A stretch of 64,000 nt of DNA, from positions 1-64,000 of IMG/VR virus record IMGVR_UViG_3300035086_000100; one strand, 5' to 3'. Numbering within the stretch: the first letter of the stretch is position 1; every line of letters begins with the position of its first letter. This document shows positions 14,222 to 62,582 of the stretch, piece by piece. The notes below the pieces were generated by a model. The model had not been told where the DNA came from. It saw nothing but the letters and a program-made list of their open reading frames with translations, and did not search any database. The DNA is from a virus. The position numbers and the translations under genes are program-made.

Positions 14222-14419
14222 ATGGATCAGATCAAGTGGGTCAAGAGTTCCCTGAGCAACAGTTTCGCCAACTGCGTGGAGGTCGCTGACCTGGGAGGAG
14301 GCACGGTGGGCGTCCGCGACTCGAAAGACCCGGACGGCCCGGTGCTGGTGTTCACTCCCGGCGAGTGGCAGGCGTTCCTCGGCGGGGCACGGGGCGGCGA
14401 GTTCGACCGGTTCGGCTAA
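14222..14419 (+). CDS. DUF397 domain protein
   Basis: WVKSSLS..NCVEVA..VGVRDSKDPDGPVLVFTPGEWQAF. Confidence 0.92.
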   Translation: MDQIKWVKSSLSNSFANCVEVADLGGGTVGVRDSKDPDGPVLVFTPGEWQAFLGGARGGEFDRFG

Positions 14420-39374: not shown

Positions 39375-39668
39375 CTATGCGGCCCTTGCCCGCCGTTTCA
39401 GTCCCTTACGCTGATTCGGGCTCAACCCCCCGTAGACACCCCAGCGCTCGTCATGCTCCAGCGCGAACTCAAGGCAGGGTGTTCTCACGGGACAAGCCCG
39501 GCATACCTGCTTGGCTGCCCTGGTCCCGCCGCCCTTTTCCGGATAGAAAATTTCGGGATCAGTCTCGGCGCACAGCGCGAGGTCTTGCCACGCCGGTCCC
39601 TGTGCGTTCACGTCCGGTCCGATGCCGGGATCGCCGGGCATGATCCTGATGATTTCGTCCATCGTCAT
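39375..39668 (-). CDS. whiB: WhiB family transcriptional regulator
   Basis: WQDLALCAETDPEIFYP..AKQVCRACPVRTPCLEFAL..GVYGGLS. Confidence 0.92.
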   Translation of the reverse strand: MTMDEIIRIMPGDPGIGPDVNAQGPAWQDLALCAETDPEIFYPEKGGGTRAAKQVCRACPVRTPCLEFALEHDERWGVYGGLSPNQRKGLKRRARAA

Positions 39669-54614: not shown

Positions 54615-55169
54615 CGGGCGAAGCTGCCTAGCACGCGAAAAAGCACCCCCGGCCCCTCTGCGCCGTGCCCGCTGTTACCAGGCGCGGAACGAGGGAACCG
54701 GGGGTGCTTCCGGTAGTGGTGCGGCGGTGGCAAATCGTCGCGCCAGCCAGCGTAGCAAGACGGCGGATGACGGGAAGGGTGATCCGGTAGCCGCCCGGGA
54801 CGCGGCTGGCGGGCGGGCGGCGCTCTTGCTACCGTGACCCTGCAGCGCAGCGAGAAAAGGATCAGCCCGCTACCGCGAACTCCCCGATCGCGGCGGCGGG
54901 CTGATCCGCTTCGCCGCCCCGGTGCAGGCCCGGAACCGGGGGATAAGGGGTTCCTGCCCCGCGGAGGGACGGCTTCCGCCCGGAGGACCGGAGCACGGGG
55001 GTGACTCCGCCTGGCCGGGCTGGATCCACTATCGCACGGCGTTGGCGGGCACGCAGCGATTGGCGGGCGAAACGGCGTGGCTGGCGCCAGAATGTCCCGC
55101 GCTCAGGTACCTGTGCAAGGGCATCTGCCGACGTATCGGCAGAGATGCCTGCACAGATACGATGCCGCG

Positions 55170-56558
55170 ATGAGTGAGGCACTGAGCGCCGCCGTGTACT
55201 GCCGCATGTCACTGGCCGTCATGGGCGACACGACGAAGGTCGAGGACCAGGAGCGGATCTGCCGGGAACTGTGCGAGCGGCTTGGCTGGCGGGTGCATGA
55301 CGTGTACGCCGACAACAACAAGTCGGCGTGGCAGAAGAACCGCAAGCGCCCGGCCTGGGACCGGATGCTCGCCGACGTCGACGCGGGCCTGATCGGCGCG
55401 ATCGTGGTCTACCACGGCGACCGGCTGGTGCGGCGGCCTCAGGATCTCGCCAAACTCATCGAGCTGGCCGACAGCAAGGGCCTGCGGCTGGCCTCGCCGA
55501 CCGGCACGCGCAACCTCGACAACGGCGACGACCGGTTCATCGTGTGGATCGAGGCCGCCGCGCAGGAGCGCTCCTCCTATGACACGTCGCGGCGCAAGAT
55601 CACCCAGTACGAGCGGATGCGGCGTGAAGGCAAGGTGCGCCCTGGCGGCAGGGGCGGCCGGTCCTACGGCTTCCGGGGCGACAACCTGACGATGATCGAG
55701 TCGGAGGCCGCGAACCTGCGGGAGGCCGCCGCCCGGATCCTGGGCGGGGAGGGCGCCGGGGCGGTCGCCGCCGACTTCACCGCGCGGGGCATCGTGACCC
55801 AGACCGGGATCCCGTTCACCTACGCCACCTTGCCGCAGCTCCTCAAGCGCCCGCGGTACGCGGGCCTGATGCCGGACGGGGTACAGCAGGCGGCATGGGA
55901 GCCGGTGCTGGAGCGGTCGCAGTGGGAGGCGCTGCGCGCGGTGCTCGGAAACCGGTCGGCCGGGTACGGGTACGCGGTGAACTCGCGCCGCTACCTGCTG
56001 TCCGGGATCGCCGAGTGCGGGTTCGGGGACTGCGGGGCGCCGCTGCAGATCCGGCACACCCGGGTCCGCGGCGACGGGCCGCCGAACGTCGGCTACGCCT
56101 GCATCAGGCCGGGCTGCCGCAAGACCTACCGGTCGCGGGTGATGCTCGACGCCTACGTGAGCCAGCGGGTGGTCTCGCTGCTGAACCAGGAAGGCAACCC
56201 GGAGCCGGCGGCGCCGCGGACGCCGGGGCTGGCCGAGCGGTACGCGGCGGCGGACGCGCAGCGCCGCGAGATCGAGGAGGTTCTCGCCGACCCGTCGCGG
56301 GGGTCGGTCCCGGCGCTGCTGAAGCGGCTGGACCGGGTGAACGCGACGCTGGCGGAACTGAGGGACCTGTCGGCGGGCGACGCCCGGTCCCGGCTCAGGA
56401 CCCGGTACGCGGGCCTGACCCTGGAGGAGTTCAGGGGCCTGCCGCTGGCGGTGCGCCGCTCGCTGGTGGCCGCCTACTTCCGGGTCGTCGTCCTGCCGTC
56501 GTCGAAGAAAGGGCCGGGGTTCCGCACCGAGGACGTCCGGATGATCCCGCGCGGCTGA
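55170..56558 (+). CDS. int: Large serine integrase
   Basis: YCRMS, DRLVR, recombinase domain, LLSGIAEC..CG Zn ribbon, coiled coil. Confidence 0.95.
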   Translation: MSEALSAAVYCRMSLAVMGDTTKVEDQERICRELCERLGWRVHDVYADNNKSAWQKNRKRPAWDRMLADVDAGLIGAIVVYHGDRLVRRPQDLAKLIELADSKGLRLASPTGTRNLDNGDDRFIVWIEAAAQERSSYDTSRRKITQYERMRREGKVRPGGRGGRSYGFRGDNLTMIESEAANLREAAARILGGEGAGAVAADFTARGIVTQTGIPFTYATLPQLLKRPRYAGLMPDGVQQAAWEPVLERSQWEALRAVLGNRSAGYGYAVNSRRYLLSGIAECGFGDCGAPLQIRHTRVRGDGPPNVGYACIRPGCRKTYRSRVMLDAYVSQRVVSLLNQEGNPEPAAPRTPGLAERYAAADAQRREIEEVLADPSRGSVPALLKRLDRVNATLAELRDLSAGDARSRLRTRYAGLTLEEFRGLPLAVRRSLVAAYFRVVVLPSSKKGPGFRTEDVRMIPRG

Positions 56559-56730: not shown

Positions 56731-57015
56731 ATGGGTTACAGGCTCGAAACGGGGATGAGAACGGCGCTCGGATGGGCGTCGGCCGCATTGTGGGTTGCCG
56801 CGGCGGGGGAGACCCTGGCCGGCGTGCGGGCGAACCTGGTGATCGCGACCGGGCTGATCGCGCTCGCGGCGAGGGAAAGGCCCGGGAGGCGGCTGCAGGA
56901 CACGGGGCCGACCGAGCAGGACTACCGCAAGGTCATCCGTGCCTACGATGCCGCGACCCGCCCGGATCCGTCGCGTGCGGCCGGTCCTCAGGCTCAGCTT
57001 CGTTCCGTTCGATGA
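56731..57015 (+). CDS. Small membrane protein
   Basis: RBS GGAGG; two hydrophobic segments. Confidence 0.5.
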   Translation: MGYRLETGMRTALGWASAALWVAAAGETLAGVRANLVIATGLIALAARERPGRRLQDTGPTEQDYRKVIRAYDAATRPDPSRAAGPQAQLRSVR

Positions 57016-57304
57016 ACGCGATGGCCTGCGCCCCGCGTTCCGGCCCCAGCTCGTCCAGCAGGATCGCGCGGCCGGCGGGGCTCAGGCCCGCATCCCGCCT
57101 GTCGTCATCCAGGCTGATGCCGAGAACTTCCTCAAGCGCGCCGATGGAGGACTTCGGCTGAGAGCGCCCGTTCTCCCAGTCGTTCACCGTCCGCACCCCG
57201 ACGCTCAGCTCGGCGGCTAGCCGCTGCTGGGTCCACCTTTTCCGCTCGCGGGCACGGCGGATTCGCTTGCCCAGCGTGGGCTCTGGTCGCATGCGCCTAA
57301 TCAT
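56933..57304 (-). CDS. XRE-family immunity repressor
   Basis: LGKRIRRARE..WTQQRLAAELSVGVRTVNDWENGRSQP; divergent from the early operon. Confidence 0.85.
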   Translation of the reverse strand: MIRRMRPEPTLGKRIRRARERKRWTQQRLAAELSVGVRTVNDWENGRSQPKSSIGALEEVLGISLDDDRRDAGLSPAGRAILLDELGPERGAQAIAFIERNEAEPEDRPHATDPGGSRHRRHG

Positions 57305-57431
57305 GGTGGCGCGTGTCTGGGCAGGTCAAGGCACTTGGCCGCACTTCACGGCGACATTTCCCGCTACGCGAACCTGCCGCGACCTGCCGGTTCCCGCTTG
57401 ACTCTGTGCCCCAACATGCCTAGTCTCGCTC

Positions 57432-57662
57432 ATGACAAGGCAGGAACCGGCAGCTACAGGAGCAGCGTTGGACACCTATCTGACCAGAGCGGAAGTCTGC
57501 GAGCGGCTCCAGATCTCCCGCGAGACATTCCGCAAGCTCGTCCTCAGGGGCGCCTTCCCCGTGACCCGGCTCGGTGCCTTCCCGCAAGGCCACCTCCGGG
57601 TCAGCGAGCGCGCACTGACGGACTACATGAGCGGCGGCAAGGCGCAGGTAAAGGCGTCATGA
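57432..57662 (+). CDS. Excisionase/Cro-like HTH protein
   Basis: YLTRAEVCERLQISRETF; leaderless TTGACT/TAGTCT promoter. Confidence 0.75.
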   Translation: MTRQEPAATGAALDTYLTRAEVCERLQISRETFRKLVLRGAFPVTRLGAFPQGHLRVSERALTDYMSGGKAQVKAS

Positions 57663-58186: not shown

Positions 58187-58458
58187 CCACCTGTAGGACC
58201 GTCGCAGAAGTCACCGAGGCCGCCAGGGAAGACGCGGCGAGGGAAGACCAGCCGCTCACTCAGCCCCAGGCCGACTTCTGGGCCGCACTCACCGCCCCGC
58301 ATCGCAAGCCGCCCGAGAGCGCTGACCAGCCGGGCGAAGCCGCCCCCGAGGCCGCCTAGGGCACGAAAAAAACCGGCCCGCCCTGCGGCAAACAGGACGG
58401 GACCGGGAGGGCTTCAGAGGCCCCAGGCAAGACAAACGGTAGCAGAGAGGACCAGGCA

Positions 58459-58980
58459 ATGCACGCACGATCGGCAGCGACGGTAGCTGCGCTAGAGGCC
58501 GAGGTCGGCCGTCAGCTGACCGGGCCCGAGGTCGGGGCCATGTTCCGGGTCGACCCCAAGACCGTGACCCGCTGGGCACGCCAGGGCAAGCTCACGGCGG
58601 GCAGGACCCCGGGCGGGCGGCGGCTGTACAGCGAGCGGGAGGTCGCGGATCTCCTGCGCAGGCAGACCTGCCATCCGGCGCCCGGTCAGCCCGTCCGGCC
58701 CGTCCTGCCCGTGAAGGCAGGCCCGACAGCCGAGACGCTGGCCGAGGTAGCGGCGCTGAACGCCGACTACCCGGGCTGGCACGTGTGGCTGTCCGACGCC
58801 GGGATGGTGTACGCCACGTGCAACCGGCCCTCCGCCGTGGACCCGGGGCAGGCCGGGCTGACCGAGCACGCGGACGCGCCGTGGCGGATGCGGGCGGTCC
58901 TGGCCGGGTTCGAGACCGCTGACCGGGAGAAGGCGCGGCGGTCAAGCGCTGACGCGATGCTCGCCGCGTGGAGTGCCTGA
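58459..58980 (+). CDS. BldC-family DNA-binding protein with C-terminal extension
   Basis: LTGPEVGAMFRVDPKTVTRWARQGKL..RTPGG. Confidence 0.85.
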   Translation: MHARSAATVAALEAEVGRQLTGPEVGAMFRVDPKTVTRWARQGKLTAGRTPGGRRLYSEREVADLLRRQTCHPAPGQPVRPVLPVKAGPTAETLAEVAALNADYPGWHVWLSDAGMVYATCNRPSAVDPGQAGLTEHADAPWRMRAVLAGFETADREKARRSSADAMLAAWSA

Positions 58981-59944
58981 TGCCCGCCATCCACGTCGCC
59001 AGCGCCGCCGAGCCAGCAATCCGTGTTCTGAGCCTCGGTGCCGGAGTGCAGTCGACCACGCTGCTGCTGATGTCGCTTGAGGGCATCCTGCCGAAGCTGG
59101 ACTACGCGATCTTCGCCGACACCGACTGGGAGCCGAAGCGGGTCTACGACCACCTTGACCTTGTAACCGAAGCGGCAGCAAGTGCGGGGCTTCCCGTGCT
59201 GCGCGTCAGTAGCGGCAACCTCCGGGCCGACACGATCGACCCAGTCCACCGATACGCGTCGATCCCGTACTTCATCAAGAACGCCGACGGCAGCCTCGGC
59301 ATGGGGCGCCGGCAGTGCACCAGCGAATACAAGCTGGCCCCGATCCGCCGCAAGGTCCGCGAACTGCTCGGCGCTAACGCACCCGACTTCAGGCGAGTTC
59401 CGAGAGGCCGGGTAGCAGAGCAGTGGGTCGGCTTCAGCGCTGACGAGATCGGGCGCGTTAACGACAGCTACAGCGTCCTGTACCAGCGGGCCGCGTACCC
59501 GCTGCTTGACCTTGGCATGGACCGCAAGGCATGCGAGCGGTGGCTGCGGTCGCGCGGCTGGACCTCGGTAGCCAAGAGCGCATGCATCGGGTGCCCGTTC
59601 CACGGCAACAAGCAATGGCGCGACCTCCGCGACAACAATCCCGCCGAATGGGCGGACGCGGTGGAGTTTGACCGCGCCATCCGGAAAGGCGGCGGCAAGG
59701 GCATCCCGCTGAACGGCGAGGCATTCCTGCATTCGTCGCGCGTGCCGCTCGATATCGCGCCCATCGACCGGGTCACCTCGGCTGAGTGGAAATCCCGCCA
59801 GGGTGACCTCCTCGACATCATCGCCGATGAGGAGATGGCCGAGCAGGGCAACCCTGACGGCTGCTCGCCTTACGGCTGCCGCTCCGGTGCACGGCTGGGT
59901 GGTGCTGCCTGATGCCCGCCATCCACATCGCCAGCGCCGCCGAG
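58974..59944 (+). repeat. 39-bp direct repeat (58974-59012, 59906-59944; one mismatch)
   Basis: TGCCTGATGCCCGCCATCCAC[G/A]TCGCCAGCGCCGCCGAG. Confidence 0.9.
58980..59912 (+). CDS. PAPS reductase-like (PP-loop) protein
   Basis: SLGAGVQST, IFADT..E, RQCT..YK, KSACIGCPFH. Confidence 0.8.
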   Translation: MPAIHVASAAEPAIRVLSLGAGVQSTTLLLMSLEGILPKLDYAIFADTDWEPKRVYDHLDLVTEAAASAGLPVLRVSSGNLRADTIDPVHRYASIPYFIKNADGSLGMGRRQCTSEYKLAPIRRKVRELLGANAPDFRRVPRGRVAEQWVGFSADEIGRVNDSYSVLYQRAAYPLLDLGMDRKACERWLRSRGWTSVAKSACIGCPFHGNKQWRDLRDNNPAEWADAVEFDRAIRKGGGKGIPLNGEAFLHSSRVPLDIAPIDRVTSAEWKSRQGDLLDIIADEEMAEQGNPDGCSPYGCRSGARLGGAA

Positions 59945-60809
59945 AGGCCGGATACCCGCCATGAGTGCCCGTGCTGCCGCAGGAACCTGCCCGCCCCGCT
60001 GTTCATGTGCTCGGGCTGCGAGCGGGCGGTTCCGAAGCGGACCAGGGACGCGATGGCCGCAGCCGTGGAGCGGGACGACCGCGAGGCGTGGACGGTCCTG
60101 CGATCTCAGGCCGTCACCGAAGTCACCGCCAAGCTCGCAGCAAGGAAGGCAGCAGCATGACCACCACGACGCAGGTGTCCGATACCCCGGTCGCCGAGGA
60201 GACCCTGAAAGCGCTGGGCCTGACGGTCCTGTACGGGCCGCTGCCGGGGGAGCCGGGAGGCCCGCCGCTGCCGGAAGGGCGCCGTGTCCGGGGGGTGTGG
60301 GAGGCCATCGCGGTCTACGCGGCACGGCACGGCGGGCCGGTGATGCGCCCGGAAGTCAAGCCGGCGATCGTCGCGGAGCCCGAGACAGGCCCCTTGCCGC
60401 CCTCATGGCAGAGGCAACTGGGGGCGTACCGGCGGATGGCCGGTTCCGTGCCCGTAACGCCAGCCGATCCGGTGCTGCCCGGTGACGACCCGGAGCCAGC
60501 CCAGCCCGTGATGCCCGCCGGGCAAGAGGACGGCTGGGACTGCTCGATGACTGCCGTGCTGCCGCGCGTAACGGAGCAAGGGGGGACGCCGTGAGCGCCG
60601 GGATGTTCCAGGGACCGAAGTTCGCCGGCCTCGGCGGGCTCAGGCACTTCGGGCAGCCCGACCCCGTGCCCGACCCGGTGTCATGGCGGGGATTCTCCCC
60701 GGTCCAGCGGAACGCCGCCTGGGACCGCCTCGCTGACGCGACCGCCAACGGCACTCCCGCCGAGATGGCCAGCGCCCGCGAGTACCTGATCAACGGGCCG
60801 GCGTCATGA
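59912..60809 (+). other. Three small hypothetical genes (59912-60160 Zn-finger, 60157-60594, 60591-60809)
   Basis: Start/stop overlaps. Confidence 0.55.
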
Positions 60810-61120
60810 GCGCGGTCACCGTCCCGGCGATGCTCCGGGGCTTCGCGCGGGCCAACGACGAGCGCTCCCGGTCGGCTGGGGAACGCGACCGGAACACCGC
60901 CCGCATCATCCTCGACGACGAGCGGCTGTGCGACGTGCCGGAGTCCTGGGTGGTCATCGCCCATGCGCGGGCGGAGCATCCCGAGACCGATTCGTGGGCT
61001 GAGATCGGCGAGGCCCTCGGATGGACCAAGGACCGCGCCCTCGCGTGCTGGCGGCGGCTCATCGTCTCGCTGGGCTACGCCGAACCGAAGCCGGCTTACC
61101 ACGTTAAGGACCGCTCATGA
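60806..61120 (+). CDS. WhiA C-terminal HTH-like protein
   Basis: F..AN..RS..A..VPE..R.EH..S..E.G..TKD..RRL. Confidence 0.65.
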   Translation: MSAVTVPAMLRGFARANDERSRSAGERDRNTARIILDDERLCDVPESWVVIAHARAEHPETDSWAEIGEALGWTKDRALACWRRLIVSLGYAEPKPAYHVKDRS

Positions 61121-61368
61121 GCACCGCCACGGCCAGCACCAGCGAAGAGACCCAGGCGGCCTGGGACCACCTCGCGGAATGCCTGCGCACGCTTAACGCT
61201 CTCGGTACCGGGGCCATGCACTGGTCGGAACGGTTCGCCGAGGAAGACCTCCCTCTGGGGTTGCCGCTTCAGGAAGCCGCCATCGAGGTAGCGGCGGGCG
61301 AGGCGGACGAGGCCCGCAGGGCGCTGCTGGCCAGGGGCGTGGACGTGCCGGATGAGGTCGGATCGTGA
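61117..61368 (+). CDS. Hypothetical protein
   Basis: ATGA overlap. Confidence 0.5.
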   Translation: MSTATASTSEETQAAWDHLAECLRTLNALGTGAMHWSERFAEEDLPLGLPLQEAAIEVAAGEADEARRALLARGVDVPDEVGS

Positions 61369-62582
61369 TGGCGATCGCAGAGCCGGCCAGCCTCGCGCCG
61401 GTCACTGACAAGAACTCCGGGGAGCGTTTTTATCCCTACCCCCGCAACGGGAAGCAGCTCGACTCGGTTACCTACCTGATCGGCGCCACGCAATCCAAGG
61501 CGTACCTGCGGGACTGGTACGCCGCGTCGGCCCTGGGCTGGGCAGCGGACAACCTTGAACTGTTCCTGAAGACGCTCCGGGAGAAGGGCCGCAAGGACGC
61601 GATAGCGCTGGGGGCGGACGCCGCCGAGCAGGTCCGGCTGATCAAGGCGGACTGCGGCACCTACGTTCACGACGTGGTCGAGGCGCTGACCTTGTGGGCC
61701 GCGTCGCCGCCCGGAACCGGTGCATCCGTCCCGCTCCCGCTGCTGCCCGATCACCTTGAGAACGCGCTCTACGACGGCGAGCCGCTGGCCGATATCGCGG
61801 CGTTCATGGTCGAGGGGTTCATCAACTTCATCGGCGCGTTCGGCTCCCCGAAGATCCTCGCGGCGGAGATGCAGGTCTACCACGAGCCGCTGGGGCTGGC
61901 CGGAACCCTGGACCTGATCATCGAGCTGGACGGGTACGCGATCAGCTTCGGGACCGGGCCGGACGGTGCCGACGAGATCGTGGCGTGCCCCGGCAACGTC
62001 CTGACGATCTGCATAGACGTCAAGACGGGCCGCGATCCGGACGCCACGTGGAAAGAGCAACTGGCCGCTTACCGGCGGATGCTCGAATGCCTGGTCGGGC
62101 TGGGCGAGCTCCGGCCGATGCCGAAGACGGACTGCGGCGCGGTGCTGCACCTGAGGCCCGAGTACCCGGAGGGCTACCTGCTTCAGCTCGTGTCCGCGCG
62201 CGATGACGAGCCGGCGTGGCAGAGGTTCCTGGCGATGGCGAACGGGTGCAAGGAACGCCAGGCAGCCAAGGGCAAGCCGGGACCGTCGATCAGGGCACTG
62301 CGTCCCGATGGCACGATGCCCGGTCCCCGGATCTGCGACATGGCCGGGGAGGGCTACGGGCGGGCTCTGGCGCCGCTGGCTAGGGCGCTGGGCGCTGACG
62401 CCGAACTGGCCACCGTGGCGGGATTCACGGCTGAGGAACTGCTGGCCGTCAAGGGCATCGGGCTGGTGCTGCTCGGCCAGATCCGGACCATGCTCGCCGC
62501 ACGGCGGATGTACCTCAAGGGCGAGGAACTGCTGCCCGTCCTCCATGCGGTTCGCGAATCCATTCAGCGGGAGGTGGCCTGA
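61365..62582 (+). CDS. RecB-like PD-(D/E)XK exonuclease with C-terminal HhH
   Basis: SVT.LI, GTYVH, AGTLDL, IDVKTG, QLAAY; LLAVKGIG. Confidence 0.8.
   Translation: MMAIAEPASLAPVTDKNSGERFYPYPRNGKQLDSVTYLIGATQSKAYLRDWYAASALGWAADNLELFLKTLREKGRKDAIALGADAAEQVRLIKADCGTYVHDVVEALTLWAASPPGTGASVPLPLLPDHLENALYDGEPLADIAAFMVEGFINFIGAFGSPKILAAEMQVYHEPLGLAGTLDLIIELDGYAISFGTGPDGADEIVACPGNVLTICIDVKTGRDPDATWKEQLAAYRRMLECLVGLGELRPMPKTDCGAVLHLRPEYPEGYLLQLVSARDDEPAWQRFLAMANGCKERQAAKGKPGPSIRALRPDGTMPGPRICDMAGEGYGRALAPLARALGADAELATVAGFTAEELLAVKGIGLVLLGQIRTMLAARRMYLKGEELLPVLHAVRESIQREVA

Follow-up and report, generated by a model that had tools for sequence, protein, structure and literature searches.

In this study, we analyzed a 64,000-nucleotide stretch of viral DNA (positions 1 to 64,000 of the IMG/VR record IMGVR_UViG_3300035086_000100; hereafter the window) and found that this uncultured ~99-kb temperate phage of a high-GC actinomycete encodes homologues of four actinomycete regulators: a BldC-like protein of 173 residues (58459-58980, plus strand), a stand-alone homologue of the domain at the C terminus of WhiA (WhiA-CTD; 104 residues, 60806-61120, plus strand), a WhiB-like (Wbl) protein of 97 residues (39375-39668, minus strand) and a DUF397 (BldB-family) protein of 65 residues (14222-14419, plus strand). 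Our preferred explanation, to which we assign a probability of roughly 45%, is that these separately placed and long-diverged homologues serve as the phage's own small transcription or DNA-binding factors, and that at least the WhiA-CTD/WhiB pair probably reaches host gene control. First, the WhiA-CTD protein corresponds to the half of WhiA that reads DNA, composed of a long helix and a sigma-region-4-like helix-turn-helix (HTH), with the backbone contacts and the single base-contacting lysine conserved. Second, the Wbl protein belongs to the WhiB/WhiB2 class, with its Fe-S cysteines and sigma-A-binding aromatic patch intact. We also counted in favor of this explanation the early-operon position of two of the genes by the integrase and repressor, a similar gene order in another viral contig, and the joint presence of WhiA-CTD, WhiB and DUF397 in a second virus. 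A host-directed role for WhiA-CTD and WhiB is plausible. The family assignments made for these four genes in an initial annotation of the window were borne out by hidden Markov model searches of Pfam and NCBIfam, by searches of PDB, by a family profile and by Foldseek.

The relationship of the 104-residue protein to WhiA emerged at the level of its family. Alone, the protein scored 21 bits against PF02650, below the cut-off of 27, and a single-sequence search gave no match in PDB, phages or plasmids. An exhaustive phmmer search over 1.84 billion cluster representatives returned 37 proteins, all of them metagenomic and some carrying the Joint Genome Institute (JGI) name 'WhiA C-terminal HTH domain'; PF02650 was matched by 26 of the 36 aligned family members. 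A profile built from these 36 members recovered WhiA of T. maritima (3hyi; E 3.9e-11, 46 bits) and of S. venezuelae (8dy7/8dy9; E 2e-8, 37 bits), and the aligned span corresponded to residues 218-307 of S. venezuelae WhiA, that is, the long helix plus the HTH. When actinomycete genomes were scanned with this profile, the match, nearly always a single one, was host whiA, with an open frame at least 320 residues long (285 of 301 sampled Actinomycetes genomes, 8 of which are unpublished and enter into this tally only), and host whiA was again what it found in five named actinomycete genomes. An AlphaFold (AF2) model built with the family alignment (predicted local distance difference test score 89.7) showed a long helix (residues 8-36) and a three-helix HTH (46-57, 64-71 and 75-88), and its top Foldseek match was WhiA 3hyi (template modeling score 0.68 over 93 columns), with sigma region 4 and S. 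venezuelae WhiA next. A different identity was also considered, in which the protein would be the RelI-type HTH antitoxin of a toxin-antitoxin pair, as the family profile also matched M. tuberculosis antitoxin RelI (PDB 9sdc; E 1.9e-5, 27.8 bits). However, this match was weaker than either WhiA match, the top structural match was WhiA rather than RelI, and the neighboring open reading frames (ORFs) at 60591-60809 (inspected by eye only) and 61117-61368 bore no likeness to RelE, ParE or BrnT toxins. Thus, the toxin-antitoxin reading, which we regard as highly improbable, was rejected because of the weaker RelI match and the lack of a toxin-like neighbor. The start of the WhiA-CTD gene overlaps the stop of the upstream ORF (ATGA).

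Residue-level comparison agreed with this assignment. N17, R55, K75 and R83 of the phage protein are the counterparts of N229, R266, K287 and R295 of WhiA, and the R232 equivalent is also kept, while R293 is represented by C81. Across the family, N229 is conserved in 36/36 members, R266 in 35/36 and R295 in 32/36; K287, which lies in a TKD motif, is lysine in 29 and arginine in 5, and R232 and R296 are kept as well. The family departs from WhiA at two positions: it has Trp in place of L274 and does not retain R293. K287 is the base-contacting lysine of WhiA, and in the cryo-electron microscopy structure of the WhiA-WhiB-RNA polymerase complex it is the N-terminal domain of WhiA that binds WhiB and the beta' dock (PMC10243135). 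This LAGLIDADG homing-endonuclease-like domain is absent from the phage protein, which comprises 104 residues in all. An isolated WhiA 221-328 construct has been assayed previously; the HTH drives DNA binding, and the full-length protein binds best (PMC3240954). Because the HTH contacts are kept and the N-terminal domain is absent, the phage protein appears to be a natural 'DNA-reading only' WhiA. This anatomy, with the DNA contacts retained and the domain for WhiB and the beta' dock missing, is in keeping with the proposal made at first annotation, in which host WhiA might be disturbed by a truncated form.

Stand-alone WhiA-CTD proteins are rare. None was matched in 50,697 GenBank phage records or in 72,556 plasmid records, and scans of IMG/VR with single family members recovered only one other virus, described below. 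None was reported in the papers checked that mention both WhiA and actinobacteriophages. This family is small and apparently undescribed.

The Wbl protein scored 81 bits against PF02467, and its best PDB match was the developmental WhiB of S. venezuelae (8dy7_H, 99.8 bits), as compared with 57.6 bits for WhiB1, 46.9 for WhiB4 and 41 for both WhiB7 and WhiB3; by sequence comparison, therefore, it is of the developmental WhiB/WhiB2 type (class II). The cluster cysteines (Cys33, Cys56, Cys59 and Cys65) and the aromatic patch (W27, F41, Y42 and Y79) are present, GVYGG occupies the GxWGG-type turn, and identity to S. venezuelae WhiB is ~62% (counted manually from the alignment). No WhiB-WhiA fusion turned up, either in a search for longer relatives of WhiB or in an HMM scan of the viral loci examined. 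A phage-borne WhiB is not new, because 710 GenBank phage records contain homologues (E 1e-10 or better). Sigma-A region 4 is bound by Wbl proteins of phages (PMC13013590), and the WhiB of phage TM4 antagonizes WhiB2 and blocks septation, according to a review (PMC6282962). The TM4 case provides a precedent for a phage WhiB of this class acting against host WhiB2.

The BldC-like protein resembles its namesake over residues 18-66, which matched the BldC crystal structures 6ama/6amk (E 2e-13, phmmer against PDB) and include 13 consecutive residues around the recognition helix, MFRVDPKTVTRWA, identical to BldC (K26, T27, T29, R30 and W31 among them). Identity to S. coelicolor BldC is 65%. Pfam placed the protein in HTH_17 (37.4 bits), with MerR and MerR_1 also matched, and the NCBIfam model HTH_BldC (NF033787, cut-off 77) scored 75.1 bits on the 173-residue protein and 78.2 bits in a six-frame search of the genome. 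Taken together, these similarities identify residues 18-66 as a BldC-family winged HTH. The gene call of the source record (146 residues) starts at Met28 (58540), inside helix 1, and would cut this helix; the ATG at 58459, with a GAGAGGA ribosome-binding site 7 nt upstream, gives a complete HTH domain. Mapping onto the published BldC-DNA contacts (PMC5859096) revealed retention of K26 and R30, which read the major groove, of T27, T29, D24 and W31, which contact phosphates, and of T42 and G44. The head-to-tail interface retains one of its faces (F21, V23, W31 and the R22-E16 pair), and the partner face is altered (L11Q, I40G and L43P). A C-terminal domain of about 105 residues (~70-173) is appended to the HTH, after which 107 residues follow in all. 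This domain had no homologue among 5.8 billion proteins in a word-index search, nor by local BLAST, and in structure comparison (Atlas) the only similar proteins, small hypothetical ones of actinobacteria, stayed below the threshold. Extensions of at least 60 residues after the HTH were found in 8/80 viral and 0/80 genomic BldC-like genes.

No cultured actinophage matched the BldC-like protein at E 1e-3 or better. On the other hand, at least 117 IMG/VR contigs encode BldC-like relatives, many of them 84-98% identical to the S. coelicolor BldC core, although this count should be read as an upper bound because some large contigs may include host flanks. In one related viral contig (L040, 2010-7304), a serine integrase (47% identical to that of this phage), an XRE repressor, a BldC-like gene and a WhiB gene (65% identical to that of this phage) follow one another in this order; its BldC-like product is 87.5% identical to the S. 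coelicolor BldC core and represents a closer BldC mimic at the matching early-operon position. In two further contigs (L011 and L014), integrase and/or repressor homologues adjoin the BldC-like gene. Because of these three contexts, the BldC-family gene appears to be a recurrent early-operon component of uncultured temperate actinophages. The copy in this phage has diverged and gained a domain.

These observations also bear on a purely phage-directed explanation, which we consider nearly as likely as a host-directed role. It holds that the BldC-like and WhiA-CTD proteins are ordinary DNA-binding proteins of the early operon (similar to Cro, Xis, Apl or gp36) acting on phage promoters, attP or replication/recombination sites, and that their likeness to host regulators reflects shared HTH ancestry instead of mimicry. 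Both genes belong to the early operon, with the immunity switch on one side and the recombination genes on the other, and every one of the homologues has diverged strongly. In structure, BldC comes close to Xis; proteins resembling BldC often carry the annotation excisionase, and genes of this family are frequently encountered in viral contigs as well as on small plasmids of actinomycetes. In addition, phage D29 has a BldC-like protein, gp36, which regulates genes of the phage. For the BldC-like protein itself, its sequence and setting suggest that regulation of phage DNA is at least as likely, and on balance we favor a role as an early regulator of the phage. However, the stand-alone WhiA-CTD family retains features peculiar to WhiA (the long helix bearing N229, and the TKD recognition motif that includes K287) and has WhiA as its sole close cellular relative, the phage Wbl is specifically of the class that partners WhiA, and three of the families co-occur again in a second virus. 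Moreover, no phage-borne target repeats were found.

This second virus (G005) is a complete, distantly related viral contig of 109,876 bp that shares several other genes with the phage studied here. It has WhiA-CTD, WhiB and DUF397 and lacks a BldC-family gene. Its WhiA-CTD (L161 8001-8558) forms the N-terminal domain of a 186-residue protein with an unrelated C-terminal part of ~100 residues. Co-occurrence thus rests on two genomes, too few for statistics, and the relatives recovered through the portal gene are 42-56% complete fragments that are uninformative on co-occurrence either way.

The DUF397 protein is a canonical member of its family (PF04149, 80.5 bits), with the motifs KSSLS, CVEVA and VGVRDSKDP corresponding to KSSYS, CVEVA and VAVRDSKxP of the family. 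Its gene is the lone plus-strand gene amid minus-strand virion genes, an arrangement reminiscent of a moron, and no XRE/WhiJ-type or AbaA partner gene was found beside it. DUF397 occurs occasionally in cultured phages, with lone or HTH-paired copies in Picard, Mojorita, Success and PIS 136. As DUF397 is a very large paralogue family (median 19 copies per genome), membership in it says little about development.

With regard to genome organization, the four genes do not form a set in the sense first supposed. Each family is represented by one copy across the 99-kb genome, six-frame search included, and the genes are spread over three separate regions, four functional contexts and both strands: the BldC-like and WhiA-CTD genes in the early operon, the WhiB gene at the edge of a TraB-type transfer module, and the DUF397 gene in the virion module. 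Because they belong to different modules, they are not one cassette. This bears directly on the full model put forward in the initial annotation, in which the four genes act as one program that holds the host in vegetative growth, keeps UUA-tRNA low for a bypass in the neck gene, and leaves it to host development whether spread is by virions or by conjugation. The model named the gene families correctly, and the vegetative mycelium is indeed the phage-susceptible state in Streptomyces, whose development limits phage spread (PMC10117723). However, the distribution of the genes over different modules and both strands implies differing likely times of expression, the wing of the BldC-like domain is divergent, no TTA codon was found in the four regulator genes, and co-occurrence with bypass genes was not shown, the relatives being fragments. 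No support emerged for a connection with the UUA bypass or with the selection of virion versus conjugative spread, and we consider the model as a whole improbable.

Returning to our preferred explanation, several steps could be envisaged for how these factors work. During early lytic growth, the WhiA-CTD protein would bind GACAC-type sites and would be unable to assemble the WhiA-WhiB-RNA polymerase activation complex; for that reason it could act as a competitor or repressor of WhiA/WhiB-dependent cell-division genes. Alternatively, it might join the phage WhiB in marking phage promoters. That WhiB protein itself is predicted to dock on host sigma-A region 4 and might divert or block host sigma-A. 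The BldC-like protein would oligomerize on direct repeats; its main task would be on phage DNA, in regulating the early operon or as an architectural factor, and it might also bind BldC sites of the host. As the product of a moron, the solitary DUF397 protein could form hetero-oligomers with host BldB paralogues. Any effect of the four genes on host development is putative. It is also conceivable, although rather doubtful, that WhiA-CTD and the class II WhiB act jointly, either as a split co-activator owned by the phage that steers host sigma-A RNA polymerase to phage promoters with a GACAC-type element, or as a decoy of two components that silences the cell-division regulon of host WhiA/WhiB.

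A number of observations weigh against our preferred explanation. First, the phage genome shows neither an excess nor a shortage of GACAC (150 occurrences versus 144 expected from a maximal-order Markov estimate), and the motif is not clustered near the early region. An apparent depletion relative to dinucleotide shuffling (150 versus 231) was rejected as a composition artifact, and there is no signal given the maximal-order expectation. Second, BldC-type AATT-N4-C repeats were not found near the switch. Third, the wing of the BldC-like domain is altered (H46R and R48L, with R, R and L at the positions of H46, R47 and R48). In BldC, these three residues read the AT-rich minor groove, and H46 is needed, as H46E abolishes binding (PMC5859096). 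Of 160 other BldC-like loci (80 viral and 80 genomic), 157 retain H46 and 159 retain R48, and this near-invariance marks the present copy as an outlier; that the recognition helix is perfectly conserved in the same sets reflects ascertainment bias, because the loci were gathered by the pattern DPKTVTRW. Fourth, D29 gp36 binds direct repeats cooperatively and regulates phage genes only (PMC12266134). Fifth, the identities to host proteins (65% for BldC, ~62% for WhiB and 22-24% for WhiA) suggest that the homologues are old and not recent captures. Finally, the host may not sporulate like Streptomyces.

Two candidate BldC arrays were also examined and rejected. AATT sites number 32 in 99 kb, with the sole cluster at 87.70-87.74 kb, outside the window, where two of three sites fit the pattern. 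Direct and inverted repeats at 54-58.5 kb proved to be operator-like palindromes. The region at 87690-87770 of the genome, which contains this cluster, is the most AT-rich intergenic stretch of the genome and has two CTGAATT words, AATT at three sites within 40 bp and CTGACG/GCCTGACG words at several places; it is a candidate origin, partition site or TraB-recognition site.

The virus record is a single linear contig of 99,059 bp, estimated by CheckV to be 89% complete, with a GC content of 64-74% and no tRNA genes. Within the window, the lysogeny/early region opens with a large serine integrase (55077-56558, plus strand; phrog_95, E 1e-63), followed by a divergent XRE/cI-type repressor (56933-57304, minus strand) and then by the rightward early operon. 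The first gene of this operon (57432-57662, plus strand) encodes a 76-residue excisionase-family HTH_17 protein, Cro- or Xis-like (TIGR01764, 30.5 bits; cut-off 28.8), and is succeeded by a GIY-YIG-type endonuclease ORF, the BldC-like gene, a phosphoadenosine phosphosulfate (PAPS)-reductase-like gene (58968-59912, plus strand; phrog_424, E 8e-45), three small ORFs, the WhiA-like gene, an acidic 83-residue ORF (61117-61368), the exonuclease of the recombination module (61365-62582, plus strand; phrog_298, E 2e-21) and a recombinase-like ORF. Between the repressor and the first early gene, inverted repeats at 57320-57453 are built on GGCAGGTC/GACCTGCC and CTGCCGGTTCC/GGAACCGGCAG and are likely operators of the genetic switch; a promoter-like site lies on the minus strand at 57329-57300. 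In the gap just 5' of the BldC-like gene, a terminator-like hairpin of 10 pairs followed by T7 is present on the minus strand (58377-58401), which on the plus strand reads as an A7 run and then the hairpin. This element may divide an immediate-early transcript (HTH, endonuclease and small ORF) from the BldC-like gene onward. The PAPS-reductase-like gene overlaps the 3' end of the BldC-like gene, stop codon included, by 13 nt, and shares 73% DNA identity over ~310 bp with M. abscessus prophage genes, which is unusually high across genera. The acidic ORF, directly 5' of the exonuclease and recombinase genes, had a faint match to the T7 gp5.9 RecBCD inhibitor (E 0.018), and its product may be an anti-RecBCD protein.

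Phage homologues of host developmental regulators, including WhiB (in approximately one fourth of actinophages), ParB, FtsK and SsgA, have already been discussed as tools to manipulate actinomycete development. Our analysis adds to these a family of stand-alone WhiA-CTD proteins, defined by the 37 cluster representatives. An N-terminally truncated WhiA in a phage amounts to a natural separation-of-function allele of a key division regulator, which reads DNA without the contacts to WhiB and RNA polymerase, and because this genome also encodes a class II WhiB and a BldC-family protein, the idea lends itself to direct testing. If true, joint action of WhiA-CTD and WhiB would represent a novel means by which a virus seizes the septation switch in actinomycetes.

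Compared with known systems, each of the four proteins shows both clear likeness and clear departure. The WhiA-CTD protein shares with WhiA (8DY7, 8DY9 and 3HYI) the long helix and HTH, the contact residues and the top profile and Foldseek matches, whereas it is phage-encoded, has 104 residues, lacks the N-terminal domain and is 22-24% identical in structural alignments. The BldC-like protein has the MerR-like winged HTH, the recognition helix and the residues E16, F21, R22, V23, T42 and G44 of Streptomyces BldC (6AMA and 6AMK); in contrast to BldC, which has 68 residues and no extra domain, it carries a C-terminal domain and sits in a phage early operon. It is also similar to D29 gp36 (PMC12266134) and to recombination directionality factors of the Xis/Apl type in being a small MerR-like/BldC-like phage HTH. 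However, gp36 resembles BldC in structure only, whereas the domain described here is a BldC-family member at the sequence level and is fused to a second domain. The DUF397 protein agrees with BldB and the DUF397 paralogues (PMC10294661) in its canonical motifs and single-domain size, but its gene has no adjacent WhiJ/AbaA partner and sits among virion genes. Finally, WhiBTM4 of mycobacteriophage TM4 (Rybniker et al., 2010, as covered in the review PMC6282962) is likewise a phage Wbl of the WhiB2/WhiB class and is the known case of a phage regulator antagonizing a host division regulator; its host genus is different, and the phage reported here additionally possesses a WhiA-CTD.

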